A stretch of DNA of 64,000 nucleotides. Source: an uncultured Eubacteriales bacterium. GTDB lineage: Bacteria > Bacillota > Clostridia > Oscillospirales > UBA644. The translations under genes were made by a program, and so were the position numbers. Positions 7,660 through 54,486 of this stretch are shown piece after piece. The DNA is taken from contig CAKSTW010000003.1 in assembly GCA_934501435.1 (NCBI GenBank), forward strand, positions 67,842 to 131,841. Reading direction: 5' to 3'. The notes under the pieces are model-generated. The model did not search any database, had not been told where the DNA came from, and saw only the letters and a program-made list of their open reading frames with translations. How positions within the stretch are numbered: position 1 is the first letter of the stretch; the number at the start of each line of letters is the position of its first letter.

Positions 7660-7815
7660 AAAAGGAATGTTCTCCGTCCTTTTGCCTGAGAGATTGCAAA
7701 GCTTACACCTTCGGCACCCGCAAGGGTTTCTCCGGAGTTTCGTCCACCGTCAGTCTTTATCTTTCGACGCCTGAGAGTTTTACTCCTTCGGCAGGCAACG
7801 CCTTTTCCTGACGAC
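7660..7815 (-). promoter_or_regulatory. tandem glycine riboswitch
   Basis: Two aptamers on the minus strand. Aptamer 1 is GGAAAAGGCGUUGCCUGCCGAAGGAGUAAAACUCUCAGGCGUCGAAAGAUAAAGAC. Aptamer 2 is GGACGAAACUCCGGAGAAACCCUUGCGGGUGCCGAAGGUGUAAGCUUUGCAAUCUCUCAGGCAAAAGGACGGAG. Family hallmarks present are CCGAAGG and CUCUCAGGCAAAAGGAC. Confidence 0.85.
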
Positions 7816-35184: not shown

Positions 35185-36324
35185 TTATTCCTTCCCGCGC
35201 TTTTTACCGCCCGCATTTTCGCTCGCCTTGAAATTATATATCGGCTTGATGATTTTCTCGACGATTACGGTTTCTTTTATGTTATTCATTATTTCTTCCA
35301 TCGGTTTATACACCATGGGACATTCATCGATTGTATCTCTTGCGACAGAAGTGGTAAAAATGCCTTCCATTGATTTCTCGAACGCGCTCAAAGTAAAGGA
35401 ATCAAAAGCATCTTTTCGGCTCATCAATCTTCCTGCGCCGTGAGGAGCGCTGCAATTCCAGTCTTCATTTCCGAGTCCCGTGCAGATAAGGCTCCCGTCA
35501 CGCATGTTCATGGGAATCAGGAGACGCTCATCTTTTTTTGCCGACACGGCACCTTTGCGGAGGATCATCGTATTAACATCAACATAGTTGTGGATTGTTG
35601 TAAAGCTGTCATCTTCCGTTAATTTCATACCGTCGAGAATCACTTCTTTGATTACCGTCCGGTTCAGATCGGCGAAAGCCTGCATAAACTCCATGTCATG
35701 TAAATAGTCCTGCATTTCATCACCGCTGAGATATGCAAGTTCATACGGAATCTCGGTCTGATTTTTGCCGCCGCAGGCATTGTAAGCCTTTTTCTGATAG
35801 TATTCCGCAACACGCAATCCGAGATTTCGACTTCCCGTATGTATTACCAAATATAAGTTGTCCTCATGATCTTTATCTATCTCGATAAAGTGGTTGCCTC
35901 CGCCAAGAGTCCCGATGCTTTCCTTGGCGCGACGTATATCAACCTTTCCGACGCAGCGCAGGTCATAAATATCAAGGCGGCCGTGACTTCTGTGGCTTCT
36001 TTCCCGAACTTCTCTGCCATACGGAATATTTTGACGGATGAAACTGTCAAGTTTAGGCAGATCGACCCTTTTTTCTTTCAGTTTTACTGTCAGCATTCCG
36101 CATCCGATATCTACTCCGACGATGTTGGGAACGATTTTATCTTTAACTGTCATGGTTGTCCCGATAGTACAACCTTTTCCCGCGTGCACATCCGGCATAA
36201 TCCGGATTTTGGATTCAGCAGAATAAGGCTGATTACAGAATGTCCTGATCAATCCCTCGGCAGAGGCCTCAAGGGTGTCCGTAAATATTTTCGCTGTCCC
36301 GTATTGTCCTTTAATTTCTATCAT
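35185..36324 (-). CDS. rtcB: RtcB family RNA 3'-phosphate ligase
   Basis: MPDVHAGKGCTIG, GGGNHFIE, HTGSRNLG and SAPHGAGR (nucleophilic His region). 379 aa. Confidence 0.9.
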   Translation of the reverse strand: MIEIKGQYGTAKIFTDTLEASAEGLIRTFCNQPYSAESKIRIMPDVHAGKGCTIGTTMTVKDKIVPNIVGVDIGCGMLTVKLKEKRVDLPKLDSFIRQNIPYGREVRERSHRSHGRLDIYDLRCVGKVDIRRAKESIGTLGGGNHFIEIDKDHEDNLYLVIHTGSRNLGLRVAEYYQKKAYNACGGKNQTEIPYELAYLSGDEMQDYLHDMEFMQAFADLNRTVIKEVILDGMKLTEDDSFTTIHNYVDVNTMILRKGAVSAKKDERLLIPMNMRDGSLICTGLGNEDWNCSAPHGAGRLMSRKDAFDSFTLSAFEKSMEGIFTTSVARDTIDECPMVYKPMEEIMNNIKETVIVEKIIKPIYNFKASENAGGKKRGKE

Positions 36325-36385
36325 TTGTTTTCTCCGTTTCTATATATTACGTCGCGGACGGTCTTTGAAAGACGCAAAGAGCGCA

Positions 36386-36928
36386 TCATACGATTATTGT
36401 CTCCCTGAAACATGCGTTGTTGATTTGCATCTGTTCAAAAGTCACAGGTTCAAAACCGTTGATGTCTGCTCCGGCGTTCAGCAGACGCGGATTGTTTTTA
36501 ATAACCGACCGGTAAGGCAGGGGTATGTTATTGTGAATATGTCCGTGAACCATATAACTTTTCAGTTCGTGCTTCCAGCACATCAAAGGATAATGACAAA
36601 GCACGAGACTGTGTTTGCCGTCCGAAACCTCTATGAAATGGTCAACCGAAAGAAAATAGCGTGAAGCGTCCAACCTTTTTAACCAACCGCCGTCATGGTT
36701 CCCGACAACGAGCCTTTTCCTGCCTTTAAGCTGCTTTAGAATTTTTTCGGGATCTTTATGTTTGTAAAACAGGTCCCCGACTATATACACGGTATCATTC
36801 CCGGATACCCTTTCGTTCCACCGCTCAATCATAAAGCTGTCCATTTCCTTGACGCTTTTGAAAGGGCGGCGGCATAAATCGATAACGGCTCCGTGTCCGA
36901 AATGTGTGTCCGCTATAAAGAAAAGCAT
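36386..36928 (-). CDS. calcineurin-like metallophosphoesterase
   Basis: FIADTHFGH (DxH), IVGDLF (GD), VVGNHDG (GNHD), GHIH. 180 aa. Confidence 0.8.
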   Translation of the reverse strand: MLFFIADTHFGHGAVIDLCRRPFKSVKEMDSFMIERWNERVSGNDTVYIVGDLFYKHKDPEKILKQLKGRKRLVVGNHDGGWLKRLDASRYFLSVDHFIEVSDGKHSLVLCHYPLMCWKHELKSYMVHGHIHNNIPLPYRSVIKNNPRLLNAGADINGFEPVTFEQMQINNACFRETIIV

Positions 36929-36947
36929 GATTCGATCTCCGTTAATT

Positions 36948-38255
36948 TCATTTTGTTTTATTCCAATACCGGTCGATCTCCCGCTGCATATTCTCGCGTC
37001 CGACAGGGTTCATTGTATGCAGTTTAACAGGATAATGGGTTTTTCTTTCGGCAAGCCAGTCAATCAGTTTGATTCCGTCACCGCCGTCGGAAGCGTAATC
37101 TCCCAGATCATGGTCGCAGTTGATTTCATCAATAACGGCATATTCTTTTTCACACTCGATTATCTTTTTTATTGCCTCATTGACACTGCGGCAGTGACAG
37201 TATCCTTCCGGCGCTTTTCTGACATCGTCAAGCCATATTTTAATATGCTCCGGCTTGGATAATCCCGCCAGGATCATACCTGACTTCAAATAATCAAGAG
37301 GAATACTGTTTTCCGCATACCCGGCAGTGATTATCTGATGATAAGCGCGGGCGAAAAGTGCCGGATCTATTTCATCTTTCAGGAAATTACCGAGAGCAAT
37401 CAGAGTTCTTTTTGAACCGGTCAGTTCCTTATCATAGAATTCAAGATCCATATAGTTTGCCATACACTCTCCGTAAATACTGCCGTCCTCTCTTAAGAAA
37501 AATCCTCCGGCACACATGTCGGAAAAGTCGCCGTTTTTTCTGAGATTGTCTTTCAACTTATCGTTTTCGATACCGTCAAGGCAAACTCCTGTCGTCACAA
37601 ACGGACCGGCACAGATTCCATCCGGTTTATTCGGATCCCATACTATATCGCCCTTTTTAAACGGTGTCGGAAAGTCAAACCAAAGACCGTCGAAAACACC
37701 GAAAAACAAATCTTCTTCATTACTGTCAACGGGTCCGGGGTAAATGCGCAGAAAATCAAAGGAAGGGGTCAGATACGCAATTTGCCGCGAATCCAATCCA
37801 TCTATCTGCATTTTGGTGCATTGAATGGAGATAACGTCGTCTTCCGGCTCCATAATGCTTTCATATAAAGCATCAAAGCATGAAAATACCGTATCCCATT
37901 CGTATTCGGAACCGTCTTTGTAAATGTATTTGAATTTGTAAACAAACGGCTTGTCATCGTCAGAAGTGTCGGCAGGTTTCTCATCACGGAACTTGTCAAT
38001 ATACTTACTTTCAATCTCCATATACTGCTTCAGAAAAGCGTGAAGACTATCCTGCGGGACAGTGTTCAATCGTTCCGCTATCCGGCAATCCGGCATCTTT
38101 TCAATCAGTTCGTTCCACGCTTTATGCTTTTCGTCAACAGTCGCGCCGCGGCACTGATAGATAAGCCATGCAGCCTCAAGAGAATTAAATTCATAACCGA
38201 TATTTCCGAGGTATTCTCTTATATCTTCGGAATTGACAAATCTTAATATATCCAT
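36948..38255 (-). CDS. protein with a C-terminal cyclic-phosphate-processing receiver-like (CPR) domain; the N-terminal ~330 aa are unknown
   Basis: The track ORF starts at GTG 38264. ATG 38255 lies 8 nt after SD GAGGAG. The C-terminus IKIWLDDVRKAPEGY...INCDHDLGDYASDGGDGIKLIDWL...VKLHTMNPVGRENM matches my recollection of the CPR/receiver-like domain described in RtcB-centred RNA repair systems. Confidence 0.7.
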   Translation of the reverse strand: MDILRFVNSEDIREYLGNIGYEFNSLEAAWLIYQCRGATVDEKHKAWNELIEKMPDCRIAERLNTVPQDSLHAFLKQYMEIESKYIDKFRDEKPADTSDDDKPFVYKFKYIYKDGSEYEWDTVFSCFDALYESIMEPEDDVISIQCTKMQIDGLDSRQIAYLTPSFDFLRIYPGPVDSNEEDLFFGVFDGLWFDFPTPFKKGDIVWDPNKPDGICAGPFVTTGVCLDGIENDKLKDNLRKNGDFSDMCAGGFFLREDGSIYGECMANYMDLEFYDKELTGSKRTLIALGNFLKDEIDPALFARAYHQIITAGYAENSIPLDYLKSGMILAGLSKPEHIKIWLDDVRKAPEGYCHCRSVNEAIKKIIECEKEYAVIDEINCDHDLGDYASDGGDGIKLIDWLAERKTHYPVKLHTMNPVGRENMQREIDRYWNKTK

Positions 38256-38315
38256 ACGTTTCACTCCTCATATATTTATTTTTCAGGTCTGTTTCTCTAT
38301 ATATAATACAACAAT

Positions 38316-38339
38316 ATATGCACCGAAAGCGGTACATAT
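38316..38339. promoter_or_regulatory. operator-like inverted repeat (island motif, site 1)
   Basis: ATATGCACC-GAAAGC-GGTACATAT, about 60-85 nt upstream of the CPR/MPP/RtcB operon start. It overlaps a putative -35. Confidence 0.6.
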
Positions 38340-38390
38340 CGACCGATAGAATAAAGACATCGGGCAAGAGATACAAAGTTTGTATTCGAC

Positions 38391-38420
38391 TTTACAAAAC
38401 ACATTGAATTATGGTATAAT
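38391..38420 (+). promoter_or_regulatory. sigmaA-type promoter P1
   Basis: TTTACA (38391-38396), 18 nt spacer, TGgTATAAT (-10 at 38415-38420). Confidence 0.5.
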
Positions 38421-38426
38421 AGCCAC

Positions 38427-38532
38427 AGAAAGTCTTGCTACCGCAAGCCTTCGCGGCTGTCGCCTCCCCGTGCTCACGCACGGCTGCGGTATTGACGGCC
38501 TCGCAAAAATGCCCTTGCAGGCAAGCATTTTT
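38427..38532 (+). ncRNA. candidate structured small RNA or cis-regulatory leader
   Basis: A GC-rich segment lies between P1 and a terminator-like hairpin. Long-range stem UACCGCA(A)GCC / GGCUGCGGUA spans 38439-38491. An inner hairpin is CCGUGC-UCAC-GCACGG. The 3' hairpin is AAAAAUGC..CUUGCAGGCAAGCAUUUUU (38505-38532). A second TGgTATAAT follows at 38539-38547. Confidence 0.35.
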
Positions 38533-38575
38533 GCATCGTGGTATAATATATAAAATCGGGAAAGGATAAAGAGAC

Positions 38576-38779
38576 ATGGACGAATTGAAGGATAATCAAA
38601 ATGTCGAAACAAAAGAATTGGTCAGGCAGTATCTAAAGAAAAAATATCACGATGATCAATTTTCAGATGCGGATTTGAAATTTCTTGCAAGGTTTTCTGT
38701 AAAAAAGGAACCCAAAGAAAGCGAAATAATGAAAAGCCTTGGCCTCATCAGCGACAAGGGAAGGGTGCAAGACTATTGA
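38576..38779 (+). CDS. hypothetical 67-aa ORF, possibly the frameshifted N-terminus of the HNH gene
   Basis: SD GGGAAAGGA lies upstream of ATG 38576. The ORF overlaps the next ORF by 41 nt in another frame, near the run AAGGGAAGGG. Confidence 0.4.
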   Translation: MDELKDNQNVETKELVRQYLKKKYHDDQFSDADLKFLARFSVKKEPKESEIMKSLGLISDKGRVQDY

Positions 38780-39206
38780 AGCCGTTAAAAAGGCAAAGGA
38801 TTGTATCCAAAAAATCTATGAGCGCTTTAGCACCAAAAGAAATAGCCAAACGAAAAAGGAAAAACCCGTAAATGTTTTTGACGATGACTTCGAAACTTTT
38901 TTGGCTTGGTGGTGCGAAAAAACGCCTGAGGACGGAATACGGCATTGTTGTTATTGCGGGATTGATGAAAACACGCTAAAAAATGCTTTTGAAAATGGGG
39001 TAGTTATCTCTAAAAAACCATCTTTCAGCGGAGAATTACAGATTGAGCGTAAGGATCCCAACGGGGATTACTGCCATGATAACTGTGAGTTTGCCTGCGT
39101 GATCTGCAACAACGCAAAAAGCGATATGATCTCTGCGGAGGACTTCACAACATACTTTATTCTGGGTATTAAAGAATACTGGGAACATATCAATGGAAAA
39201 TTATAG
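38739..39206 (+). CDS. HNH endonuclease domain protein
   Basis: CCYCGIDENTL...ELQIERKDPNGDYCHDNCEFACVICNNAKSD is a Cys-box HNH. The track start is a TTG with no SD, so the real N-terminus is unclear. Confidence 0.6.
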   Translation: MASSATREGCKTIEAVKKAKDCIQKIYERFSTKRNSQTKKEKPVNVFDDDFETFLAWWCEKTPEDGIRHCCYCGIDENTLKNAFENGVVISKKPSFSGELQIERKDPNGDYCHDNCEFACVICNNAKSDMISAEDFTTYFILGIKEYWEHINGKL

Positions 39207-39263
39207 TGCTTGCGGTGAAAATCTCATTATTCTTTTAACGCAAGGCACAAGGAGGCCTTTTCT

Positions 39264-40775
39264 ATGATTTACTTGTCAAAATCAAAATATTGCGGACTTT
39301 GGCAATGCCCCAAAATTGCATGGATGAAAAAATACAAACCGGAAGAACTGCGGCTGGACGAAAGCGTCGTTTCCCGCATGGAAGCCGGCAACGAGGTCGG
39401 CGATCTGGCTATGGGGCTTTTCGGAGACTATGTTGAGGTGACAGCGTATAACAACGAAAAACCTGACCTTTCCAAAATGATTGAAACCACAAAAGCGGAA
39501 ATGCAAAAAGGCACGCCGGTCATCTGCGAGGCTTCTTTTGAGTATAACGGGCTCTATTGCGCTGTGGACATCCTAAAAAAGGAGGGGAACGGCTGGTCAA
39601 TTTATGAGGTCAAAAGTTCCGCAAAACACGAAGATAAAAAGGATGATAAGCCGGTATACATTGCGGATGTCGCTTATCAGAAATATGTGCTGGAAAACTG
39701 CGGCATAAAACTCACCGGGACATATCTTGTCTGCCTGAACGGAGATTATATATTTGACGGAGTCCTTGACATCAATCGTTTATTCACTGTTTCTGACATA
39801 TCAGAAGCCGTATCTGTTGAAGAAAAAAATATTTCTGCAAATCTGTCTGTTGCCGAAAAATTGCTTAACTCTTCCGATGAGCCGGATATAGATATATCAG
39901 CAAATTGCAAAAAGCCGTACCTTTGCGGATTTTGGGATTATTGCGCAAAAAACATCCCAAAACAATCGGTATTCAACTTGTATAAAATGAGGTTCAGCAG
40001 AAAGATAAAGTTCTATAAAAAAGGGATTATTACATACCGGGAATTGTTGAACAGCCCCGAAATCACCAACGAAAAACATCTTCGACAGATCGAGTTCTCA
40101 TTGCAGGATAAAGGAACCTATATCGAAAAAGAAAATATCCGTAAATTTCTTTCAACTCTCTCTTATCCGCTCTACTTTCTCGATTTTGAAACAATTCAGC
40201 CTGTCATTCCGAAATATGCAGGAACAAAACCTTATGCGCAAATACCGTTTCAGTATTCGCTGCACTGTATCGAAACAGAGGGCGGAGAGTTAAAACACAA
40301 AGAATTTCTCGCAGAATCCGGTACCGATCCGAGAAGAAAACTCGCCGAACAGCTTTGCTCGGACATTCCCATGAACGTCTGCGTTACGGTTTACAACAAA
40401 GCCTTTGAGTGCACCCGGCTTAAAGAATTGGCGGAGACATTCCCGGATTTGGCGAAGCATCTTCTCAATATACGAAAGAACATCGTCGACCTGCTTGTTC
40501 CGTTTCAATCGGGCTATTACTACAATCGGGCAATGGGCGGGTCATTTTCCATTAAAAGCGTTCTGCCTGCCATTTTCCCGGACGATCCCGAATTGAACTA
40601 TCACAACCTTGAAGGTGTGCATAACGGCGGAGAGGCAATGACGATTTTTCCGAAAATACAGTTCATGACGCCGGAGGAACAAAAGAAAGCGCGGCGCGAT
40701 CTGTTAAAGTATTGCGAACTTGATACCTATGCTATGGTTAAAGTCTGGGAAGAACTTATTCGCGCAGCAGAATAA
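39264..40775 (+). CDS. DUF2779 family protein (Cas4/RecB-like PD-(D/E)xK nuclease + DnaQ-like exonuclease region)
   Basis: MIYLSKSKYCGLWQCPKIAWMKKY; EASF...VDIL...WSIYEVKSS (D..EVK nuclease core); Cys cluster CKKPYLCGFWDYC; YPLYFLDFETIQPVIPKYAGTKPYAQIPFQYSLH. Confidence 0.8.
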   Translation: MIYLSKSKYCGLWQCPKIAWMKKYKPEELRLDESVVSRMEAGNEVGDLAMGLFGDYVEVTAYNNEKPDLSKMIETTKAEMQKGTPVICEASFEYNGLYCAVDILKKEGNGWSIYEVKSSAKHEDKKDDKPVYIADVAYQKYVLENCGIKLTGTYLVCLNGDYIFDGVLDINRLFTVSDISEAVSVEEKNISANLSVAEKLLNSSDEPDIDISANCKKPYLCGFWDYCAKNIPKQSVFNLYKMRFSRKIKFYKKGIITYRELLNSPEITNEKHLRQIEFSLQDKGTYIEKENIRKFLSTLSYPLYFLDFETIQPVIPKYAGTKPYAQIPFQYSLHCIETEGGELKHKEFLAESGTDPRRKLAEQLCSDIPMNVCVTVYNKAFECTRLKELAETFPDLAKHLLNIRKNIVDLLVPFQSGYYYNRAMGGSFSIKSVLPAIFPDDPELNYHNLEGVHNGGEAMTIFPKIQFMTPEEQKKARRDLLKYCELDTYAMVKVWEELIRAAE

Positions 40776-40965: not shown

Positions 40966-41763
40966 TCACGTCTCCCAACTTATGCAATTCAAGACTCCCC
41001 CGTCCTCGGCTATACCGTTTATATTCACGGTAATTATTTCTTTATCAAAAACTTCCTTTGCACATTTTACCGCCGTTTTATCCTTTTCATTACCGAAAAT
41101 CGGCAGGAAAATATGTCTTTCTGTTTCAAGAAAATTCAAGTAACAACCGACAGCGCTTATGCCAACGGAATCAATATACGGAAAGTCAACAACCGAAATG
41201 CCGTGTTTTTCCAACGCCTTTTTAACCTTCTGCTCGTAACCGTTGCATGACAAGGCATTACCGAGAATCGTGTTTTCATCTATAAATCGCACTACGCCGT
41301 CCGCATGACCTGTCATATCGCTTTTAAGCGACGGAATAATAATTATCCCGGCTTCAAGCAAGTTTTCAAGTTCGGTTAAAAGAGTGTTTTTATCATATTC
41401 GGGATTTTCCGAAAACACTCTGTCCGAGATAACTGCTTTTGTTTTAGAGGGTGAAAACACAACATTTCCGCCGTCAAGATTGATGTTTGAATATGTAATC
41501 GGCAAACCGAAATGCGGCGCGATATCGACTTTAAAATTTGTTCTTAATTGCGGATAGCCCGCAAGGTACCCCGGCTCATACCGAAACGATATATATTTAC
41601 CGCTTTGGGTTTTGACCGGCATATAATCTCTTGCCCAGATATCCTTTGCTCCGTCAAAAAGAGTAAATTGTTCGCCGTGATCGGATAAAGCAGAAAACAA
41701 ATTCTCCGCCGATAACGAATATTGGGGGTTGGTTTTCAGAAGTGATGAAAAATATAATCTCAT
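40966..41763 (-). CDS. agmatine deiminase / PAD_porph-like guanidino-group-modifying enzyme (pentein superfamily)
   Basis: DIWARDYMP (D.W.RD..P); NLDGGNVV; MTGHADGVVRF (TGH.D); CYLNFLETERHIFLPIFGNEKDKTAVKCAKEVF; C-terminal DGGVLNCISWE (GG..HC.T-type Cys nucleophile). Its ATG shares 1 nt with the upstream stop (TAATG). Confidence 0.75.
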   Translation of the reverse strand: MRLYFSSLLKTNPQYSLSAENLFSALSDHGEQFTLFDGAKDIWARDYMPVKTQSGKYISFRYEPGYLAGYPQLRTNFKVDIAPHFGLPITYSNINLDGGNVVFSPSKTKAVISDRVFSENPEYDKNTLLTELENLLEAGIIIIPSLKSDMTGHADGVVRFIDENTILGNALSCNGYEQKVKKALEKHGISVVDFPYIDSVGISAVGCYLNFLETERHIFLPIFGNEKDKTAVKCAKEVFDKEIITVNINGIAEDGGVLNCISWET

Positions 41764-42314
41764 TATTTAAAAGTAACTTCAGCAGAATAGTTGAATTTTA
41801 AATGTTCATTGCTATCTATATTTACTCTCTCTTCTGTATTAAATGAGAGCGTGTCAATTTTATCGCTCAAAAGCAGAGAACATCCATAAAGAGAAAATTT
41901 TCCGTGACAATCACAATAATCAGGTTTACTCTTATACAAATGCAATTCCTTTGCTATGCCGTCAGGTCCAAAGCATATCCCGTTTTCATCTTGAATTTCC
42001 TTTATCAGGACATTGTCAGAGTAAACATTATCGGTGACCGATAAAAGCAATTGACCGCCATATACACACCATGTTCCCGGTGTTGAAAACAATGGCGCAG
42101 AAACAGCATTTTGCGCTTCAGCCTTTGTCTTTTCAGCACCATAACATATTTTCTTTCCTTTATTATCATATTCTTCATGGTAATAAGCTTCTGTGGATGT
42201 AATCATATATTTTTTTATTCGGTTGCCTCGCTGAAAAGTAATTGTCGCTCCCAACAAACCCTTGGCAACAGTAGCAGCATCTTCCTTAAAAAAATCTTGT
42301 GTAAATTTGCTCAT
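41763..42314 (-). CDS. divergent AAG/Mpg-fold (3-methyladenine DNA glycosylase-like) protein
   Basis: FFKEDAATVAKGLLGATI...YMITSTEAYYHEE matches the LLG...IVETEAY motif. TPGTWCVYGGQLLLSV...NVLIKEI matches the G..YVY..YG...LN.V...VLIRA motif. GPDGIAKEL matches GPGKL. An insertion follows the TEAY motif. TGgTATAAT and SD AAAGGGAG lie upstream. Confidence 0.65.
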   Translation of the reverse strand: MSKFTQDFFKEDAATVAKGLLGATITFQRGNRIKKYMITSTEAYYHEEYDNKGKKICYGAEKTKAEAQNAVSAPLFSTPGTWCVYGGQLLLSVTDNVYSDNVLIKEIQDENGICFGPDGIAKELHLYKSKPDYCDCHGKFSLYGCSLLLSDKIDTLSFNTEERVNIDSNEHLKFNYSAEVTFK

Positions 42315-42409
42315 TTCAAATTTCTCCCTTTGTTTTTACTCCATTATACCACGCTTAAACAGCCTACCGTCCGCGGCGATTTCTAAGGTGATTTAACTGT
42401 CAAAAGGTA

Positions 42410-43351
42410 TCACGCATCGGTCGTTTTACCGCAAAGTTTTTCTTTGATCCGGGTTTTATACCCGATAAACTCCGAATTATTCGGGTCAACAGAAAGCACA
42501 TAGTTTATCCGTCCCAGCAGTTTCCTCAAATAAACAGTCTCGTTATCCGTATTTCCTTTCTTTTCAAGATGACTCCTGATTCCGTATTTTTTACAATAGT
42601 ACATCTCCTGTCGGACATTCTTTCTGTACGATGCTGCCACATTCGGTTTTTGATTGACAACGATCCCGGTAACAGACATTTTTTGTCCATTACATACACA
42701 AACCGTCTTTTTTTCATTTAAGAAAAAACCGAGTTTTCCGAGTTCGCCTGATACAAAACATTTCAAAACCGACGGTTCAAAGACCCCCGAAAAAGTCATA
42801 TCGTCACAGTAGCGTGTATAGGTTATTCCTCTTTCACGGCACCAACTGCCGACAGTATTATCAAAATCCCGCATAATGATATTGGATATTGCCGGAGATG
42901 ACGGTGCGCCCTGCGGCAGACAGCCTTTATAACAGCACAAGACAGACAGCAGAACCCCGTTCGACTCGGAAAAAATTCTGTCATTGAAAACAATATTTCT
43001 GACAAGCGCATAGGTAATTTTATCAAAGAAATGCCGGATATCAAGTTTCAGCAACATCGCGTGTCCTGCATGCGGCTTTGCATTTTTCAAAGGGCTGCCG
43101 CCGAATCGGTATGCGGTTGCATACGGAGAAAGTTCGATTCGGTTCAGAATGACATTCGTAATTTTCTTTTGCACCGCTTTAAGCTCTTCATCCGGAACAA
43201 ACAGTTTGCGGTATTCGCCGTTTCCTTTGGGAACAGACGTTTCATGATAATGCGAATTGATTGTATTGCTGAGAGTGTACAACATTTTTGCCGAGCATCC
43301 GAGATCGGTTTCGAGGGAGGAATGCTCCCGATAGATAATCATATTTGGCAA
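42410..43351 (-). CDS. retron-type reverse transcriptase
   Basis: 313 aa. LKNAKPHAGH (NAxxH); LLKLDIRHFFDKI (motif A); LPQGAPSSPAISN (motif B); YCDDMTFSG (motif C); MSVTGIVVNQKPNV (retron VTG motif). SD GAGGGAGG. A structured non-coding region lies immediately upstream. Confidence 0.9.
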   Translation of the reverse strand: MPNMIIYREHSSLETDLGCSAKMLYTLSNTINSHYHETSVPKGNGEYRKLFVPDEELKAVQKKITNVILNRIELSPYATAYRFGGSPLKNAKPHAGHAMLLKLDIRHFFDKITYALVRNIVFNDRIFSESNGVLLSVLCCYKGCLPQGAPSSPAISNIIMRDFDNTVGSWCRERGITYTRYCDDMTFSGVFEPSVLKCFVSGELGKLGFFLNEKKTVCVCNGQKMSVTGIVVNQKPNVAASYRKNVRQEMYYCKKYGIRSHLEKKGNTDNETVYLRKLLGRINYVLSVDPNNSEFIGYKTRIKEKLCGKTTDA

Positions 43352-43368
43352 TCCTCCCTCTTTTTAAG

Positions 43369-43597
43369 TAACGGAACAAAACAATGAGTATATCGAAGTT
43401 GTGGAGCTGATGAATCGTGCACATGAAGTGTGCCTAGCATCAGTGGAATCAACTTTGATTGAGCATAGCGAATGCCTGTAAATATCGCTGTCCCGATAAC
43501 GACTCGCCATCGGTGTCAATATATTCGCGGTAATACGATGTCCATTGACCTGCACTAATGTTCCGTTATCCTTTTAATCGGTTTTTAATGTTCAGGC
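43369..43597 (-). ncRNA. retron msr-msd non-coding RNA (predicted)
   Basis: Read on the minus strand. a1 UAACGGAACA (43559-43568) is complementary to a2 UGUUCCGUUA (43369-43378, 18 nt before the RT ATG). UUAGUG with a candidate branching G follows a1. Internal hairpins are CCGAU..AUCGG, AGCGA..UCGCU, AAUCAA-AG-UUGAUU and CUGAUG..GCACA-CUUCA-UGUGC..CAUCAG. Confidence 0.7.
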
Positions 43598-43603
43598 AAT
43601 TAC

Positions 43604-43632
43604 ATTATACCACCCTTTTGTTATTTTGACAA
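43604..43632 (-). promoter_or_regulatory. sigmaA-type promoter of the retron
   Basis: Minus strand TTGTCA (43627-43632), 17 nt spacer, TGgTATAAT (-10 at 43604-43609). Confidence 0.65.
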
Positions 43633-43656
43633 GTATTTTTGATATTCTCTGAATAT

Positions 43657-44895
43657 TCAACTGAATTTCGGATAATTATGCTGCATTATATTGATGTCGT
43701 GTTCAAAAATTTTCACTCGGGTGTCCGGCGCACAGACCTCCCCGATACGCAATATGTCCAGAACGGAATTCATATAAACCGATTCGTATTCCTGCGATAC
43801 ATCGGGTGAAAATCTCTTGACAATAAATCCGGCGGTAAGTTCGTTCGGCTCACTCATCGACTTATATGTTTCGTAAAACGACGGAAGCGAAAGAAACACT
43901 CCCATCAGTTCGGTTTGAAAAGATGAAGTTTCTTTTTCGGGATTTTTCAAACGCTCAACCGTATAAACAGTTCCCCGCTTTTCGCTTTTGAACTTTGCAA
44001 GAAACTCGTCTTCTGCGGCAATCATTTCCGAAAGCAAGGCGTGGACTCCCGCGATGCCTTCAGACAGAAAGCCCGTGGCGTCAACTGAAGTGTCGGGAAT
44101 ATCGGCGATTATATTTTTCAACTCCGCATGCTTTTCTTCAAGAGTCAGCCAACTGCAATTATGCACAATCACCGCCGCCTCGCCGGAGTCGAACTCATAG
44201 CGTTCATCGTCCAGGCGCTTGCGCACGCCGTCATTTTCAATCAAACGCAGCGTATTTTTTCTGATTCTTTCGGATTTATCGTCGATCCCGTTTATCAACT
44301 CTTTTTCCTTGATTCGGGAAAACAGGGCGTATTCATAAGAAAACTCTTCGAACAGCGTTTTTCTGCGGGGAAACGCTGCCGCAAGGGCAAACTCATGAAG
44401 CGTTTGCGAAAAACACGACAAATTCTCATTTTTCTTTGATTTGGAATAACTCTTGTAATCGCCGCTGTAAACAAGGTCGGTAAAAAACAGAGCCTTCTCC
44501 TTTTCACAGCCTGTCGAAATAAGGAATTCGTAAAAATCTTCCCCATACCATATATCAGCGCCGAGAAAAGCCCGTACCTGCCTGTTTACGCAACCGACCC
44601 CTTTTTGTTTCGCGTAGCGGACGTATGCCTCTGCGGCGGTTAACGGCTTCTTTATTGCTTCTTTAAGCGTTCTTACCCTTGCATCATAAAGGTCAAACTT
44701 ATGAAACAGCGTCCATACCGGACGGTGCAATACCGTACAATTCTCCTTGCCTCTCAGATATTCCAGAAACTCCAGACATTCTTTTTTTGTCGGAGCCTCT
44801 GCCGGGTCGAATGGTTTTTGGCGGCAAGAAAACGGATCCTCTTTATAAAAAGTGATATTTCCGTTTTCTCTGACACAGTAACAGCTTACTGACAT
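43657..44895 (-). CDS. hypothetical protein (412 aa)
   Basis: Track ORF 43657..44940, trimmed to ATG 44895 (MSVSCYCVRENG), 6 nt after SD GGAGGGGG. No motif recognised. Confidence 0.65.
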   Translation of the reverse strand: MSVSCYCVRENGNITFYKEDPFSCRQKPFDPAEAPTKKECLEFLEYLRGKENCTVLHRPVWTLFHKFDLYDARVRTLKEAIKKPLTAAEAYVRYAKQKGVGCVNRQVRAFLGADIWYGEDFYEFLISTGCEKEKALFFTDLVYSGDYKSYSKSKKNENLSCFSQTLHEFALAAAFPRRKTLFEEFSYEYALFSRIKEKELINGIDDKSERIRKNTLRLIENDGVRKRLDDERYEFDSGEAAVIVHNCSWLTLEEKHAELKNIIADIPDTSVDATGFLSEGIAGVHALLSEMIAAEDEFLAKFKSEKRGTVYTVERLKNPEKETSSFQTELMGVFLSLPSFYETYKSMSEPNELTAGFIVKRFSPDVSQEYESVYMNSVLDILRIGEVCAPDTRVKIFEHDINIMQHNYPKFS

Positions 44896-45045
44896 TTTTA
44901 TCCCCCTCCGTGTTTTTTCGGTTTCGGTAACCGCCCGCATTGATAATACTTTGGCTCATTATATTCCGGCAGGCGCCGAGAAACGAACTTTTATCGCCCG
45001 TCACAGACCCTTTCCGGTGATTTCCCTTTTTAAACATCTGAAAAT

Positions 45046-45423
45046 TCAGCAAAAATATCGGTAGTGTTCAGATCCGTCACTCTTTATCGTTATTGATCGC
45101 AGTTCCTTTACATTGTTTAACTCAAAGCAATCAAATATCATTTTGACGACATCTTCGTTGTTGATATCCGGATTAAGGTATATTGTCGCTTTTCCGTTTT
45201 TGATCTCAACACGTCCTCTCGGATAATAATTGTAAGGTAAACCGTTGGTAACTCTTCGATCAAGTTGCTGCCATTCGGTTTTATGATTAAAGTTATCTCC
45301 GCATTTTGAACTGTATTTAACAAACGAATCAGAATTGCCGGATGCAGAACAAGTTGTTGACACCGTTATCAATGCAGGCTGCGCGGAATCAGAATTTTTG
45401 ACCCAAAAGATACCTTTTTTCAT
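45046..45423 (-). CDS. hypothetical protein (125 aa)
   Basis: SD AAGAGG is present. Contains GDNFNHKTEW...LPYNYYPRGRVEI, which I cannot assign to a family. Confidence 0.6.
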   Translation of the reverse strand: MKKGIFWVKNSDSAQPALITVSTTCSASGNSDSFVKYSSKCGDNFNHKTEWQQLDRRVTNGLPYNYYPRGRVEIKNGKATIYLNPDINNEDVVKMIFDCFELNNVKELRSITIKSDGSEHYRYFC

Positions 45424-45465
45424 TCATCAACCTCTTTTCCGATAACCTCTGATATTTCAGGCGGT

Positions 45466-46335
45466 TTAATCTTTCAGGTCCGGGCATAAGCATTTTTTCT
45501 CATTTCGTTCCGTACTGCTTTTGCAGATAAACACCTGCCGGTTTAACGCCAGCGTTTTTTCGATGTAGTCACTCAACTCTACTGTCTCATCGGTTCGTTC
45601 ACACAAATCAAAAACGACGAGCGGCCAATTTATATGATTGAAATCTCTGATTTCTTCGACCTTTTGCCAAAACTGATTGATACTGAGATAGCACAGATAT
45701 TCAAACAAGACCGAATCGGATTCGCTTAAAACATCTCGACTGCACCTGCCGGCAGAGGAGACAATAACAGTTTCACCGTTTTCTTTGATACGAATTTGAT
45801 TGGTGTCCGTTGCTCCCGAGTTTCGGTTGTTCCATTCCTTAATATGATTATTCAGACACGATCGAAATGATCTTGTATTGCCGATACCGTCTGTCTGTTT
45901 CGAAAAATCGGTTTTGGAATAATACTTTTCAGCGTCCTTATAGTTCCTGAATCTATCTGAAAACCTGTCGCTGCTGCTGAAGGAAAAACATGACAGATGC
46001 TCCTCTTCCGAGCTTTGGTGAATCATACGGTAAAAGTCTTCGCGCAATTCGGCATCCTCGGTTTTTACAGTGTAAGCGAACCCCTGTTTATTCTTCAATC
46101 CCGACGCAGTTATGAAGTATTTCTTTCCCGATATTTCAATCTCGACTTTAATGTTCGTTCTTTCCGCCGCTTTAACTTTTTCTCCGACAAGAGATCTGCT
46201 TTTCAGAACAACACCTAACGCTTTTTTGATAACTTCTGCGTTTTCCGGGGACAGAACGACAAGTTGAGAGTCAAAAGAAGATTCATAACGGACTGTGTTT
46301 TCAAAATCTTCAATTTGTATTCTCCTGACGATCAA
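45466..46335 (-). CDS. hypothetical protein, possibly a degenerate ABC/SMC-like ATPase fold
   Basis: Track ORF 45466..46422. The best initiation signal is SD AAAGGAGAA 8 nt before TTG 46335, giving (M)IVRRIQIEDFENT. ATG 46404 is an alternative. The N-terminus resembles the M.I..I.I.NF start of RecF/SMC-type ATPases but has no GK[ST] P-loop. The C-terminal PLVVFDLCE...NRQVFICKS resembles a decayed Walker B/D-loop. Confidence 0.55.
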   Translation of the reverse strand: MIVRRIQIEDFENTVRYESSFDSQLVVLSPENAEVIKKALGVVLKSRSLVGEKVKAAERTNIKVEIEISGKKYFITASGLKNKQGFAYTVKTEDAELREDFYRMIHQSSEEEHLSCFSFSSSDRFSDRFRNYKDAEKYYSKTDFSKQTDGIGNTRSFRSCLNNHIKEWNNRNSGATDTNQIRIKENGETVIVSSAGRCSRDVLSESDSVLFEYLCYLSINQFWQKVEEIRDFNHINWPLVVFDLCERTDETVELSDYIEKTLALNRQVFICKSSTERNEKKCLCPDLKD

Positions 46336-46406
46336 CGAGTCGCTTCTCCTTTCACTTTGATCTGTTTTTACTTTGTCTCTTGCCGATAACCCAATCCGGC
46401 GCATGA

Positions 46407-48431
46407 TTATTCCGCAACACAAAATCCTATCGGATTTTTGCGTTTTTTTGCGGCGGCGGGAGGGTCTTCAATGTCTTCGGCGCAAATTGTGATAATGTCA
46501 TCTTTTGCAATATGATCAAAATCCATTTGAAGCAATCTGGTTGCCTGCGCCATTTTTGCTTTTTCAATCACATTACGGGCATAACGTCCGTTGCCGAACT
46601 CGCTTTCTTCTTTGGCAAAATCAAACAAACCGGTCAGTTTTTCACGGGCGTCTTCCGTTAATTTCATGCCTTTTTTCTTTGCAATCAGATTTGCGATCTT
46701 GCAGAGTTCATCAGTATTATAATCGGCAAAAGGAACATGAAAAGCGATTCTGGATCTTAAACCGGGATTCTTTTGAAGGAACTTTTCCATTTTATCGGGA
46801 TAGCCTGCAAAGATTACGACAACATCGTCCCTATGATTTTCCATTTCCTGAACGATCGTATTGATTGCCTCGTCTCCATAGGAACCGTCCCTGTCATCAA
46901 CGAGAGAATATGCTTCATCTATGAAAAGCACGCTGCCTTGAGCTTCGCGGAATTTCTTTTGAATCGTGGGAGCAGTCCATCCCACAAACTTGCCGACAAG
47001 ATCGCCGCGCCCGACCTCGATAAGTTTTCCTTTGGAAAGCAAATCGTTTTCCTTCATGATTCGGGAAAAGAGTCTGGCAACAGTTGTTTTTGCAGTACCG
47101 GGATTCCCGCTGAAGACCATATGCATGGCAGGTCTGTCTCTCATCATAGCCTTGTCTGCAAAGAGTTTCTGCGCCTTGTAATAATTCAACGCCTGAATTA
47201 TTACTTTTTTAGCCTCATCAACTCCGATCATTTCCATCAGTTCATCGTAAGCGGATCCCTTCGGAGCCGCCTTTACAACTTCGCGCTTTGCAGTCATAAT
47301 GTCTTTATACTGGGGGAAAACACCGGTTTTGAGTTTATTATTGAACCATTCGTCAAATATCTCGTGAAGATCCGGAGCCAAATACCCTTTCTCATTTTCA
47401 AGCGCTGAAAACAATTTCTTATCAGGTCTGATTCCATTGTCTTTTGCGAGCATTTTCAGAAACCGTTCCGCACGCTCCCCTGAAACAAAGTCTTCTTTCA
47501 ATTCAATGAAACTGATATTTCCGAGCTTCTCGCAGAACATTTCTTTTGACTTTGTACATTCGCGAGGAAGACAGAACACCGTAAGTACCAGGTTGCGGTA
47601 TTTTCTCATTATTTCACAAAGGGTTTCGATTGTATCCCTGCCGCAAGACGCGTGTTCGTTTTCTCTGTCATCGTTCGCAAGATATCTGACGATGACCGCT
47701 CCGCCTATACTGCTTTTGTAAAGGCAGTCATAAGCATCGGAAGAAAAATCATCGCCGGGCTTAAAATCAAGGAAGCAGTATCTTTTGCTGCGCAGCCTTC
47801 CGTTTAAATAAAGAGACTGAAGAAGAAGCCTATACATACTCTTGCGTGTTTCGCGATCATCGGTTTGCACAAAATAGTGCACGGGATGCCCAAAGGCACG
47901 GCGCATACTTTTTCCCGCAAATATCCGATCGAGTTCGGGAATGACAGAGTCTCTCGCAAGAAAACGGTCGGCTTCTTTATAGATTTCATCTCTTTTCGAC
48001 TCATCCAGAAGGTTTTCGCCGTATTCAACATTTCTTTCGTTTCTTCCGGTAAGCTTATCTAAACCGAAAAGTTCAAGGACCTCATCATCGTCTTCGATAT
48101 AATCGTTTTTGTCTGCACAAAAGAGCATATTCCGCGTGGCGCTCAAAGTAGTCTCTTCAATATATATGTCTTTTAAACTGATTTCAATCGCAGCCAAAAA
48201 CGATGATATCTGTTTATCAAGATTGGCAGGCTCACGGCAAATAACTCCAATGGTTGCAGTGTCTTCAGATACGCTAATAATATAGAAGAAATTTCTTTTT
48301 TTCTGCTTTTGGTTAAACGCATTTCCTTTCATGGCAATCTTGCGGACGTTTTCACGCATTATATGTCTGTTATTATATCTTTCCGACCAATCCTCATCAG
48401 TTATGATACCGTTGGCTTTGAAAAACTGCAT
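46407..48431 (-). CDS. SpoVK/CbbX-type AAA+ ATPase with a ~400-aa unknown N-terminal region
   Basis: Walker A FSGNPGTAKTTVARL, Walker B VLFIDEAYSL, VVIFAGY (sensor 1 region), NPGLRSRIAFHVPFADY. SD GGAGG. Confidence 0.85.
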   Translation of the reverse strand: MQFFKANGIITDEDWSERYNNRHIMRENVRKIAMKGNAFNQKQKKRNFFYIISVSEDTATIGVICREPANLDKQISSFLAAIEISLKDIYIEETTLSATRNMLFCADKNDYIEDDDEVLELFGLDKLTGRNERNVEYGENLLDESKRDEIYKEADRFLARDSVIPELDRIFAGKSMRRAFGHPVHYFVQTDDRETRKSMYRLLLQSLYLNGRLRSKRYCFLDFKPGDDFSSDAYDCLYKSSIGGAVIVRYLANDDRENEHASCGRDTIETLCEIMRKYRNLVLTVFCLPRECTKSKEMFCEKLGNISFIELKEDFVSGERAERFLKMLAKDNGIRPDKKLFSALENEKGYLAPDLHEIFDEWFNNKLKTGVFPQYKDIMTAKREVVKAAPKGSAYDELMEMIGVDEAKKVIIQALNYYKAQKLFADKAMMRDRPAMHMVFSGNPGTAKTTVARLFSRIMKENDLLSKGKLIEVGRGDLVGKFVGWTAPTIQKKFREAQGSVLFIDEAYSLVDDRDGSYGDEAINTIVQEMENHRDDVVVIFAGYPDKMEKFLQKNPGLRSRIAFHVPFADYNTDELCKIANLIAKKKGMKLTEDAREKLTGLFDFAKEESEFGNGRYARNVIEKAKMAQATRLLQMDFDHIAKDDIITICAEDIEDPPAAAKKRKNPIGFCVAE

Positions 48432-50203: not shown

Positions 50204-51205
50204 CTATTTGACATTTTTATTCTCATTATATTTCTTCAGTCCGCTATCCAAGATTTCTTTCATTCGATTTCTTAAGGATTCCGGTGAAACTATCTCCACA
50301 TGGTTTATGTACTGCATTGCCCAAAGTTCCATGGCGGTTGGGCTTGCTTTAACACCGACTCTGACTTTTCCTTCTTCGTTTGATTTCATGATGCGAATGT
50401 CCTTTCCGAACCAGTCGACAATTTGATCAACTATCCCCTCGTCGGCAATAAAATCAATGTATTCGGGTTTATCAGAATACATATACGGCATCGTTGAAGA
50501 TAATTCTTTATAATTGATGCCGTTTTCATAACCCGGCACGTTTTTAAGCGGAGTTGCTTTTCGGGCTGTGATTGTCATATTGCTGATACGGTCAAGTCGG
50601 TGAAATACAATATTGTGCCAGTATTCACTGTATGCCATCAAATAATAGCGTTGATTGTGCAAAATCATCAAATACGGGCTGACATATTGCTGCGAAGTCT
50701 TGTGCAGTTTTTTATCAACTCCGTATTTATTGTAATCGTAATGTATCTGTTTCCCTTCTTCTATGGCGGCATCAATTAACTCAATATTATAGAACAACGC
50801 CTGATTGTCTGTTTTGCTCCAGTCGTTCACCGAGTGGATATGTTTAACGCTTGACCTGAAATACTTGTTCGACAGAGCGCAAATACGATCAATCAGATCC
50901 TGCGAGTGGCGGGCTGTAATGTGCTTACTGCTCAACACGCCGTCAATCAGCATATGGAGTTCCGAATCTTCAAAATCGCGGCTGTCCAAATAGCTGCCGG
51001 ATCTTCGGGATTCGATTTCTATCCCGGATTCTTTTAACAAAGAAATATTACGGCTGATTGCTTTTCTTTCAATGACTATCCCGTATTCATTTTCCAGCTT
51101 TCGTGCAATATCCTCCTGCGTCATGGGATGGTCATAGTCACTGTTTTCTTTGAGTATTTGCCAAATCCTTATCAATGCAAGTTTTTTCGGTTCAAAGCTC
51201 TCCAT
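50204..51205 (-). CDS. WYL-domain transcriptional regulator (wHTH-WYL-WCX architecture; BrxR/CapW-like)
   Basis: N-terminal wHTH (LIRIWQILKENSDYDHPMTQEDIARKL). WYL core (SPYLMILHNQRYYLMAYSEYWHNIVFHRLDRISNMTI). C-terminal extension. SD AAGGAG. Confidence 0.8.
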   Translation of the reverse strand: MESFEPKKLALIRIWQILKENSDYDHPMTQEDIARKLENEYGIVIERKAISRNISLLKESGIEIESRRSGSYLDSRDFEDSELHMLIDGVLSSKHITARHSQDLIDRICALSNKYFRSSVKHIHSVNDWSKTDNQALFYNIELIDAAIEEGKQIHYDYNKYGVDKKLHKTSQQYVSPYLMILHNQRYYLMAYSEYWHNIVFHRLDRISNMTITARKATPLKNVPGYENGINYKELSSTMPYMYSDKPEYIDFIADEGIVDQIVDWFGKDIRIMKSNEEGKVRVGVKASPTAMELWAMQYINHVEIVSPESLRNRMKEILDSGLKKYNENKNVK

Positions 51206-51802
51206 ATTATAGCTCCTTGTCGTTTTCCGTATGTTAAAAACATAATCTTAAACAGATTATACCGTACCATAAAAGTCACGCCCGTTTTTGGTACATTTCA
51301 TTCTTTTATTTGCCCGCAATAATATTTATATCAACAAACACGCGGAAGGTCACCTTGATTACCGGGTCCGCATTTTATTTCTTTCCGGTCTTTTTAGGTT
51401 TTCCATTGTTCCGTAACGGTTGCCGAAGCTTTAACTTTGGCAACAAACCGATTACAATCACCTTTTACTTTATTATACTCATTTTTGAAATACGAGTCAA
51501 GACCTTAAAATTCAGGCTTTATCAAATTCACCGTAATACGACGCAGAGGAAATATCTTTTATCTTCCGGTTTCAGGATATCCGCAACTGTAAAAAGCCCT
51601 TTGCGAAAAGGATTTCTCCTCTCGCAAAGGGAAAGCTGACGAGTAAAATTTTACAGTACGGTTTTTCACAATAAAATGATACCGGAAGCAATGTACCGGT
51701 TTTGATGCCCCGCCGTTCAATTTCAATCGGTTCAAAGTTTTCTCTGCCATACCTGTCAAACATACAACGCCGCTCACATTTGTGTCTCTTCAGATCCTGA
51801 CT

Positions 51803-53785: not shown

Positions 53786-53858
53786 ATCCGCACCTCTTCT
53801 TTTCTTTATACACGAATTATAGCAACAGTAATGTACCGATTATATCCCGCTGAAAATT

Positions 53859-54476
53859 TCATGCTTCCTGTTGATGCTTTTGCATTTCGTTTTCTTTGAT
53901 AAGTTTCATATACCAACCGTCAACGCAAAGTCTGAGGATCGAACATTCATAATTTATTGCGGAATATGTGCATGAGTCTTCCAAACAAGCGGTTTTAATG
54001 GCCAATGAAGAAGTAAGCAATTTGAATTTCTCGTCATTGATATAGAATACTTCTCCCGGAGTCAAATCGCCTTTAATATCGTCAATAACAATAACCGGCC
54101 GTATTCTGCCGCCCGTATCTCCGTCATAAGACCGGTTTGCGTTGTTGTTTGAAACGCAATAATGCTCGTATAACCACCAGTTATCTTTTGTGTCCGGAAG
54201 ATTGTTGCATAACAAATCAAAATCATGCCTTGTTAAAAGTGAAGCTCCGACGGTTTTAACGGTTCCTTCTTTTTTCCCTTTTCCGACATAACGGAGAGTT
54301 GCCTCACAACGTTCGGTAGTAGTAAGGAGCCTGGCTTTTTCTCCTTTTTCTTTATTATTCTTTTTATATACTGCAGATCTGCAGCCATTGAGGGTATTGA
54401 TGGTTTTTTCAATTTCCTCTTCGGACATAGAGGACAAAAGTTCTTTCAGTTCATTTGTAAAATCATTCTTATTCAT
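53859..54476 (-). CDS. hypothetical protein (205 aa)
   Basis: Track ORF 53859..54494, trimmed to ATG 54476 (MNKNDFTNELKEL), 6 nt after SD AAGGAG, which overlaps the upstream stop codon. No motif recognised. Confidence 0.6.
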   Translation of the reverse strand: MNKNDFTNELKELLSSMSEEEIEKTINTLNGCRSAVYKKNNKEKGEKARLLTTTERCEATLRYVGKGKKEGTVKTVGASLLTRHDFDLLCNNLPDTKDNWWLYEHYCVSNNNANRSYDGDTGGRIRPVIVIDDIKGDLTPGEVFYINDEKFKLLTSSLAIKTACLEDSCTYSAINYECSILRLCVDGWYMKLIKENEMQKHQQEA

Positions 54477-54486
54477 TGTGAACTCC

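Follow-up and report, generated by a model that had tools for sequence, protein, structure and literature searches.

Ec107-type retrons and the locus under study

In the classification of Mestre et al. (2020), the branch of reverse transcriptase (RT) clade 2 that contains Ec107 is made up of (msr-msd)-RT cassettes that stand alone, with no protein associated (PMC7736814). In Escherichia coli, Ec107 lies between pyrE and slmA (PMC7736814; PMC6868368), and an 'Ec107_like' covariance model is among those most often detected in a 2026 metagenome survey (bioRxiv 10.64898/2026.05.14.725207). Here we consider a relative from an uncultured Eubacteriales bacterium (GenBank assembly GCA_934501435.1, contig CAKSTW010000003.1), in a stretch of 64,000 nucleotides (the 64-kb window) whose segment 43369–43597 had been proposed in a preliminary description to be a retron msr-msd. 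We hold with high confidence that the segment is a genuine Ec107-type (Retron-Eco5) msr-msd, ordinary in kind; it adds a member to a described family, for which an 'Ec107_like' non-coding RNA (ncRNA) model is already in the literature. The preliminary description is confirmed in substance, with small corrections to the start-codon distance, the branching guanosine and the small hairpins. All coordinates of the ncRNA, the RT and the downstream gene pair are read on the minus strand of the window, on which 43632–42410 very probably forms a compact, self-contained retron cassette of the Ec107 family, consisting of promoter, msr-msd and RT. Its parts are as follows.

43604–43632, minus strand: putative sigma-70 promoter, with −35 TTGTCA (43632–43627), 17-nt spacer and extended −10 TGgTATAAT (43612–43604); consensus scan 11/12 plus TG
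43559–43568, minus strand: a1, the 5' arm of the closing inverted repeat, TAACGGAACA (= UAACGGAACA); perfect 10-bp complement of a2, covarying across homologues
43555, minus strand: predicted branching guanosine, the G of UUAG and fourth nucleotide after a1; A-G invariant in 25 of 25 aligned homologues
43514–43550, minus strand: msr hairpin 1, GGUCAAU...AUUGACA, with an apical part of variable length; minimum free energy (MFE) fold and covariation
43493–43513, minus strand: msr hairpin 2, CCGAUGGCG-AGU-CGUUAUCGG; nine pairs, 97.3% paired
43383–~43485, minus strand: predicted msd template, by alignment transfer from Ec107; first templated base 43383, far end approximate
43392–43459, minus strand: msd stem-loop, with outer stem AUCAAAGUUG/CAACUUCGAU, middle stem CUGAUG/CAUCAG and tip GCACA-CUUCA-UGUGC (43433–43419); MFE fold and covariation
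43382, minus strand: conserved opposing G, four nucleotides 5' of a2; near-invariant (G190 of alignment A2, see below) and marking the predicted start of reverse transcription
43369–43378, minus strand: a2, the 3' arm of the closing inverted repeat, TGTTCCGTTA (= UGUUCCGUUA); perfect complement of a1, with covariation
43313–43360, minus strand: hairpin burying the RT ribosome-binding site; inverted repeat I1, 13 nt, 92% complementary
42410–43342, minus strand: retron RT, 310 aa, with NAxxH, YCDD and VTG; Pfam RVT_1 1e-18, PADLOC RT_Ec107-like 2e-125

Covariation and homology of the msr-msd

A structured RNA of ~200 nt lies between the strong promoter and the retron-type RT. Its closing arms pair perfectly, as originally described: a repeat finder returns arms of 10 nt that are 100% complementary and 180 nt apart. 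Taken alone this repeat is modestly unlikely and, as weak evidence, only suggestive; among 2000 dinucleotide shuffles of the 314-nt intergenic region, 35 (1.75%) have a correctly placed repeat of the a1/a2 type of at least 10 bp. The comparative evidence is decisive. RNA folding, which had been put forward as a check, gives an MFE of −64.8 kcal/mol for the segment 43580–43360 (z = −4.1), with none of 200 shuffles equally stable and with a1/a2 closing the fold.

The comparison covers 93 loci: 80 genome loci with RT relatives of 42–60% identity (mostly from Clostridia, Oscillospiraceae and Lachnospiraceae assemblies, with a few Enterobacteriaceae), 12 closer metagenomic loci (RT identity 68–94%) and the E. 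coli Ec107 locus (L093). By a simple search, most of these loci have a repeat of the a1/a2 type at the equivalent place, with arm sequences that vary between loci; the distance from the end of a2 to the RT start is 12–30 nt, and the element measures 165–250 nt. Twenty-five ncRNAs were aligned with MAFFT (alignment A2) and analysed with RNAalifold, after which pairs were counted for a hand-written structure, giving the following shares of paired cells and of pairs with compensatory changes (25 sequences).

a1/a2: 96.5% of cells paired, compensatory changes in 7 of 8 pairs
msr hairpin 1 (43550–43514): 91.7% paired, 3 of 5 pairs
msr hairpin 2 (43513–43493): 97.3% paired, 7 of 9 pairs
msd middle stem: 94.4% paired, 4 of 5 pairs
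msd tip stem: 98.4% paired, 3 of 5 pairs
msd outer stem (43459–43450 with 43401–43392): 68% paired, 9 of 10 pairs
AGCGA/UCGCU hairpin: 59.7% paired, 2 of 5 pairs

Overall, 86% of cells are paired in these 25 sequences, against 32–41% when the partners are slid by 1–3 columns; 36 pairs show double changes, and none of 500 shuffles reaches any of these measures. In an alignment of 87 distinct sequences that was fitted to the covariance model, 90% of cells are paired and double changes occur in 42 of 43 pairs. There, a1/a2 is 93% paired with changes at all 8 pairs, msr hairpin 1 has both-side changes in 5 of 5 pairs, and the middle and tip stems of the msd are 91–98% paired and its outer stem 77%, every msd pair showing double changes. 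Missing conservation or covariation of a1/a2 had been named earlier as a point that would speak against a retron; the repeat is conserved and covaries in both the 25- and the 87-sequence sets.

The 25 Clostridia-type ncRNAs of alignment A2, with no enterobacterial sequence among them, also served as the seed of a covariance model (R1). In the window, R1 has a single match (43367–43570, 165 bits), and it matches directly upstream of the RT in about 90 of the 93 loci. It finds the msr-msd of E. coli Ec107 in the interval from pyrE to the RT (L093:4009-4198, 44.8 bits, E = 8e-9), as well as four more non-seed Enterobacteriaceae loci (L074, L080, L060, and L067). Rfam gave no match at the locus, either in an E-value search of 42000–45000 or in a gathering-threshold search of the whole window.

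Predicted priming site, stem-loops and DNA product

Directly 3' of a1 stands UUAGUG (43558–43553), as the preliminary description stated. Its proposal of a branching-guanosine context holds for the UUAG site, with a shift of the nucleotide: A16 and G17 of alignment A2 are invariant and G190 is nearly so, and the window equivalents of the two Gs are 43555 and 43382. Retron ncRNAs carry 'two opposing G residues' (PMC7736814), and because the AG after a1 is invariant and matches this description, the predicted branching G is that of UUAG rather than the last G of UUAGUG. The two residues are arranged symmetrically (ACA-UUA-G vs. G-UUU-UGU), and G43555 aligns with the G of AAUAGCG in Ec107, consistent with a role in priming.

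Of the small hairpins proposed earlier, CCGAU/AUCGG is real and extends to the 9-pair msr hairpin 2 (43513–43493). This is the family's most conserved element, with core GCGAGUCGC, in which C66, G67, G69, T70, C71, and G72 of alignment A2 are invariant; Ec107 carries it as GGUCGGCGAGUCGCCGACU, and it may serve in recognition by the RT. The first msr hairpin (43550–43514) had been overlooked. AGCGA/UCGCU, which had been taken for a further msr stem-loop, is weakly supported (59.7% of cells paired, double-side changes in two of five pairs) and was dropped from the model as a third msr hairpin; judging from the alignment with Ec107, it is probably part of the reverse-transcribed region. The msd-type stem CUGAUG...GCACA-CUUCA-UGUGC...CAUCAG is likewise real (43443–43407), whereas AAUCAA-AG-UUGAUU, placed before it, is not the conserved fold; the outer msd stem forms there instead, in which AUCAAAGUUG (also given as AAUCAAAG; 43459–43450) pairs with CAACUUCGAU (43401–43392).

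The multicopy single-stranded DNA (msDNA) is predicted at ~100 nt, with both ends transferred by alignment under the assumption that the msDNA of Ec107 is 107 nt long (from its name) and starts beside the conserved opposing G. The predicted msDNA folds as a 22-bp interrupted hairpin (free energy −15, z = −3.1).

Reverse transcriptase and its expression

The RT belongs with retron RTs by profile and by motif. The RT_Ec107-like match covers 299 of 307 profile positions; the next PADLOC profiles follow with RT_III-A (2e-96), and the best 25 models are all retron RT models. Models of the defence-associated RT (DRT) type are far weaker (Drt2 1e-15, Drt3a 3e-10), and group II intron models are likewise far lower. 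The translation contains region X as N87-A88-K-P-H91 (NAxxH) and region Y as V224-T225-G226 (VTG), the motifs that define retron RTs (PMC7736814), and N87, A88, H91, T225, and G226 are invariant in 20 RT homologues. The catalytic box is YCDD (in RYCDDMTF); Ec107 is peculiar in having this box instead of YADD (PMC6868368). There are 3065 RT homologues at E <= 1e-20.

Homologues start with MIVYRE and an identical 310-aa protein is on record; the start codon is thus ATG 43342, behind the ribosome-binding site GAGGGAGG. The layout proposed in the preliminary description, with a2 shortly upstream of the RT start, stands, but the gap is 26 nt rather than 18 nt; the shorter distance corresponds to an in-frame TTG within the RT ribosome-binding site. 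The transcription start predicted near 43597 fits the 11/12 sigma-70 promoter at 43632–43604, which would drive the cassette, and homologous loci also have TATAAT boxes upstream of a1, at variable distance.

Additionally, the leader of the RT message can form a second structure, in which GAGGGAGGAUUGC (43360–43348) pairs with GCAUUCCUCCCUC (43325–43313, RT codons 6–10) and encloses the ATG at 43342. Single-sequence folds give this hairpin, of 11–14 bp, in 20 of 22 homologous loci. It accompanies the fixed codons GAG CUU UCC UCC CU for E-L-S-S-L and is absent from more distant relatives with other codons. MAFFT and RNAalifold gave no consensus for the hairpin, because its 5' arm shifts register, and its support comes from the single-sequence folds. 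Such a structure might regulate translation of the RT.

Comparison with described retrons

The likeness to Ec107 extends over the whole cassette. RT_Ec107-like is the best RT profile and the YCDD box is present; the RNA has the same layout (a1, AG, hairpin, GCGAGUCGC hairpin, long msd hairpin, G, a2), is encoded immediately before the RT and is found by a single covariance model. In pairwise alignment with Ec107, the common elements are a1-AG, the GCGAGUCGC hairpin, CAAAGU...ACUUCG, the msd tip and G-a2. Both behave as small insertions without a fixed effector: Ec107 replaces 34 bp, and a relative of the window element (L109) replaces 24 bp. There are also differences. The window RT is ~40–45% identical to enterobacterial members (42–45% for L060, L067, L074, and L080). 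Its host is a Clostridia-type bacterium of the gut; clade 2, by contrast, is described as mostly gammaproteobacterial. The a1/a2 repeat has 10 bp, compared to 16–18 bp in Ec107, and the AUA/UAU pairs beside the branching G are replaced by a UUA/UUU internal loop. The msd forms one hairpin, whereas Ec107 has an extra internal hairpin; furthermore, the window element carries the hairpin that buries the ribosome-binding site. A literature search for 'Retron-Eco5' from 2021 onward found nothing.

Type III-A retrons, which have a phosphoribosyltransferase and a winged-helix protein and form the sister group of the Ec107 branch, share the common RT architecture (RT_III-A, 2e-96), but the window ncRNA matches the Ec107-like family, and Pfam, NCBIfam and PADLOC scans of the genes at 35185–63361 gave neither a phosphoribosyltransferase nor a winged-helix partner of the kind that marks type III-A. 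Ec86 (Retron-Eco1) resembles the window element in its long msd hairpin and in the expected RNase H-dependent maturation. Its priming geometry is identical: on the 5' side, a stem is followed by UUA and the branching G, and on the 3' side, three unpaired bases separate a G from the stem. Ec86 differs in its RT clade (type II-A), in having a nucleoside-deoxyribosyltransferase-like effector and in the absence of ncRNA sequence similarity, the Rfam models giving no match.

Proposed function of the RNA and alternative explanations

The analysis shows the anatomy of the locus with its conservation and covariation, its homology to a retron for which msDNA production is proven, and an RT of retron signature. 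On this basis, the following course may be proposed, in which priming, the exact msDNA ends and the amount made are expected rather than observed properties. One transcript from near 43597 would carry the ncRNA followed by the RT message. Pairing of a1 (43568–43559) with a2 (43378–43369) would set the invariant G43555 opposite the conserved G43382, and the RT would recognise the msr hairpins, chiefly the family-wide GCGAGUCGC hairpin (43513–43493). The 2'-OH of G43555 would then prime the RT, and the RNA would be copied from 43383 towards ~43485, with the copied template removed by host RNase H. The product would be a branched RNA-DNA molecule, the ~100-nt DNA of which could fold into the hairpin encoded at 43459–43392.

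That the repeat and hairpins are chance features of an AT-rich intergenic region can be practically dismissed. The frequency of the perfect 10-bp repeat among shuffles (1.75% in the right place) is what such a view could claim, but the fold has z = −4.1, the covarying pairs keep their positions in dozens of loci whose RTs may be as little as 42% identical, and covariance-model matches are restricted to the RT-proximal site; covariation and model results already refute chance. It is also very unlikely, if less so, that the RNA is a 5' leader regulating RT expression, or the template of a DRT-type, non-retron defence RT. A conserved hairpin does sequester the RT ribosome-binding site, which makes some control of RT translation by RNA structure likely, and msDNA at this locus is predicted from sequence. 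However, profile and motifs alike assign the RT to the retron type (RT_Ec107-like 2e-125 vs. Drt2 1e-15 and Drt3a 3e-10), the RNA shares homology with the msr-msd of Ec107, a producer of msDNA, and a1/a2, the invariant AG and the opposing G form a retron-specific geometry. The preference in the preliminary description for an msDNA-type retron over another defence RT agrees with the retron RT profile and motifs, the covarying ncRNA and the Ec107 msr-msd homology, with msDNA here as a prediction.

Several points weigh against the assignment to an msDNA-producing Ec107-type retron. Family membership rests on our own R1 model together with PADLOC, Rfam being without a match; msDNA is experimentally known for E. 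coli Ec107 and predicted for this locus and the Clostridia members. The 3' end of the predicted msDNA is extrapolated from the 107-nt length in a relative whose RT is ~40% identical, and the promoter lies 36 nt upstream of a1, so that the 5' end of the mature RNA is not fixed.

A glycosylase-like and a deiminase-like gene downstream

Two genes follow the RT, either of which is a possible but unproven retron partner.

41763–42314, minus strand: protein of the alkyladenine DNA glycosylase (AAG) fold, 183 aa; Pfam Pur_DNA_glyco 1e-8, AlphaFold2 pLDDT 90
40966–41763, minus strand: truncated protein of the agmatine/peptidyl-arginine deiminase family, 265 aa; Pfam PAD_porph 2e-20

For the glycosylase-like protein, a fold search gave human AAG (TM 0.72, E = 8e-9), whereas a sequence-profile search of its family against the PDB had no match; its TEAY motif is invariant. 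The deiminase-like protein aligns with Helicobacter pylori agmatine deiminase (3hvm) and retains the WxRD motif, the H-x-D motif and the C-terminal Cys. A PHROGs search matched neither of the two.

On balance, the cassette probably stands alone as an (msr-msd)-RT unit and has no effector dedicated to it among its neighbours, which is also how the Ec107 branch has been described. Across ~80 diverse loci, the neighbours of the RT include almost no recurrent protein cluster, in agreement with the 'orphan' description. A presence/absence pair points the same way: in L109, a 1412-bp promoter-ncRNA-RT block (L109:6014-7425) replaces 24 bp of L115 (L115:4597-4620), with flanks 94–96% identical and the last codons of the upstream 231-aa gene also changed, which resembles the replacement by Ec107 of a 34-bp intergenic palindrome in E. 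coli. One observation tells against a stand-alone unit: the glycosylase/deiminase pair stands beside Ec107-like retrons in three RT lineages, mutually 43–46% identical, and in two gene orders, which is far more often than expected from random placement.

The alternative is a tripartite system, unlikely in our judgement, in which the glycosylase-like (42314–41763) and deiminase-family (41763–40966) proteins would be effectors restrained or triggered by the msDNA-RT complex. By analogy, such an arrangement would parallel the nucleoside-deoxyribosyltransferase-like effectors of type II retrons and the phosphoribosyltransferase-like effectors of type III, and N-glycosidic-bond chemistry is recurrent among retron effectors (PMC7736814). 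In the window, all the genes lie on the same strand, with 95 nt between the RT and the glycosylase-like gene and one base (41763) common to the two downstream genes, and both enzymes retain their catalytic motifs. The three proteins occur together in a second genomic context (L085; 84, 80, and 78% identity for RT, glycosylase-like and deiminase-like proteins). An alternative order, glycosylase-deiminase-third gene-ncRNA-RT, is found in L104, L108-112, L118, L135, and L128, and deiminase-third gene-ncRNA-RT in L073; the RTs of these alternative-order loci are 43–46% identical to that of the window, and the model confirms their ncRNA. Against this, the pair has its own promoter (GTGGTATAATGG, a conserved extended −10) that is kept in retron-less loci, and most copies of the pair have no retron within 4 kb, including the closest relatives (87–91% identity) and a copy just after tsf. 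L115 retains the pair and the third gene without a retron, a deiminase-like gene is nearby in 1 of the 80 genome loci with an Ec107-like RT, and RT relatives at 68–83% identity have different neighbours or none. Neither downstream protein matches any PADLOC model, a literature search linking retrons with deiminases gave nothing relevant, and co-residence in a defence or mobile island would also explain the adjacency. We consider it unlikely to about the same degree that a glycosylase-fold and truncated deiminase-family module partners the 'orphan' Ec107-like retrons of gut Clostridia as a new retron type; the chemistry might then be base excision and guanidino-group modification, with an occasional third gene for a CPCC/phosphatase-like protein or a WYL regulator.

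Two other candidates were set aside. A 202-aa protein in L073 had no similarity to the glycosylase-like protein by BLASTP. A MoxR-AAA and DUF2201 pair stands beside the RT in L003, L027, and L086, but was rejected as synteny because it is 11 kb away in the window island and also present at the edge of the retron-less L094 and L095.

In its own right, the glycosylase/deiminase module (window 40966–42314; loci L096-L140) is a tight two-gene unit, very common in gut metagenomes, with more than 5000 relatives of the deiminase-like protein. Often, a Sel1-repeat gene and an AAA gene of the FtsH-like or IetA-like kind lie ahead of it. The partner encoded in L094 and L095 has 254 aa and a VEAYYY motif, and may be a divergent glycosylase-like protein.

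Genomic surroundings

The cassette lies within a ~25-kb island between lysS and an RtcB RNA-repair cluster. The surroundings (35185–40775 and 50204–61068) look like a conflict/defence island, and encode a DUF2779/Cas4-like nuclease, a cREC_REC protein, a Metallophos phosphoesterase, an RtcB RNA ligase, a WYL-WCX regulator, a LigA-like NAD ligase with BRCT, a MoxR-type AAA protein and a DUF2201/VWA metallopeptidase-like protein. Of these, the DUF2779/Cas4-like, WYL-WCX, LigA-like, MoxR-type AAA and DUF2201/VWA proteins belong to the island, as does a 1315-aa SNF2 helicase with weak similarity to DrmD, DpdE and ZorD. Directly upstream of the retron, and also within the island, a four-gene string on the minus strand (43657–48431) encodes a 674-aa SpoVK/CbbX-like AAA ATPase and, after it, three proteins (318, 125, and 427 aa) that had no family match, nor any match in PHROGs. 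The 427-aa protein has 26–29% similarity to the N-terminal part of the cREC_REC protein (36948–38264), and the 125-aa protein recurs in deiminase-family loci with or without a glycosylase-like gene (L073, L094, L095, and L102).

Other loci place related retrons in different settings. In L088:1-9700, an RT of 69% identity and its ncRNA lie between a type II-A CRISPR-Cas system (Cas9, Cas1, Cas2, and Csn2) and a prophage-like block (repressor and terminase), and the RT is followed by a 165-aa protein without a family match. In L091, Sel1-repeat, HIRAN and SLOG (LDcluster4) genes precede the ncRNA and RT. Elsewhere in the window, on the minus strand, a T-box leader (869–1110, 100.6 bits) and a glycine riboswitch aptamer (7664–7745, 51.5 bits) exceed the Rfam gathering thresholds; both are routine and unrelated to the retron.

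Implications

A retron ncRNA was correctly picked out by a reader from the raw sequence alone, and the analysis supplies a fully annotated Clostridia msr-msd of the Ec107 family, in which roles are predicted for the branching G, the start of the template and the conserved hairpin for RT recognition. The family is the main retron group to which neither an effector nor a function has been assigned, and gut metagenomes contain it very commonly. Annotated members, the L109/L115 pair and the recurrent glycosylase/deiminase neighbours provide handles on what stand-alone retrons do. The compact cassette of ~1.25 kb could be a candidate for retron-based DNA production tools, and the glycosylase/deiminase partnership, if true, would define a new retron type.

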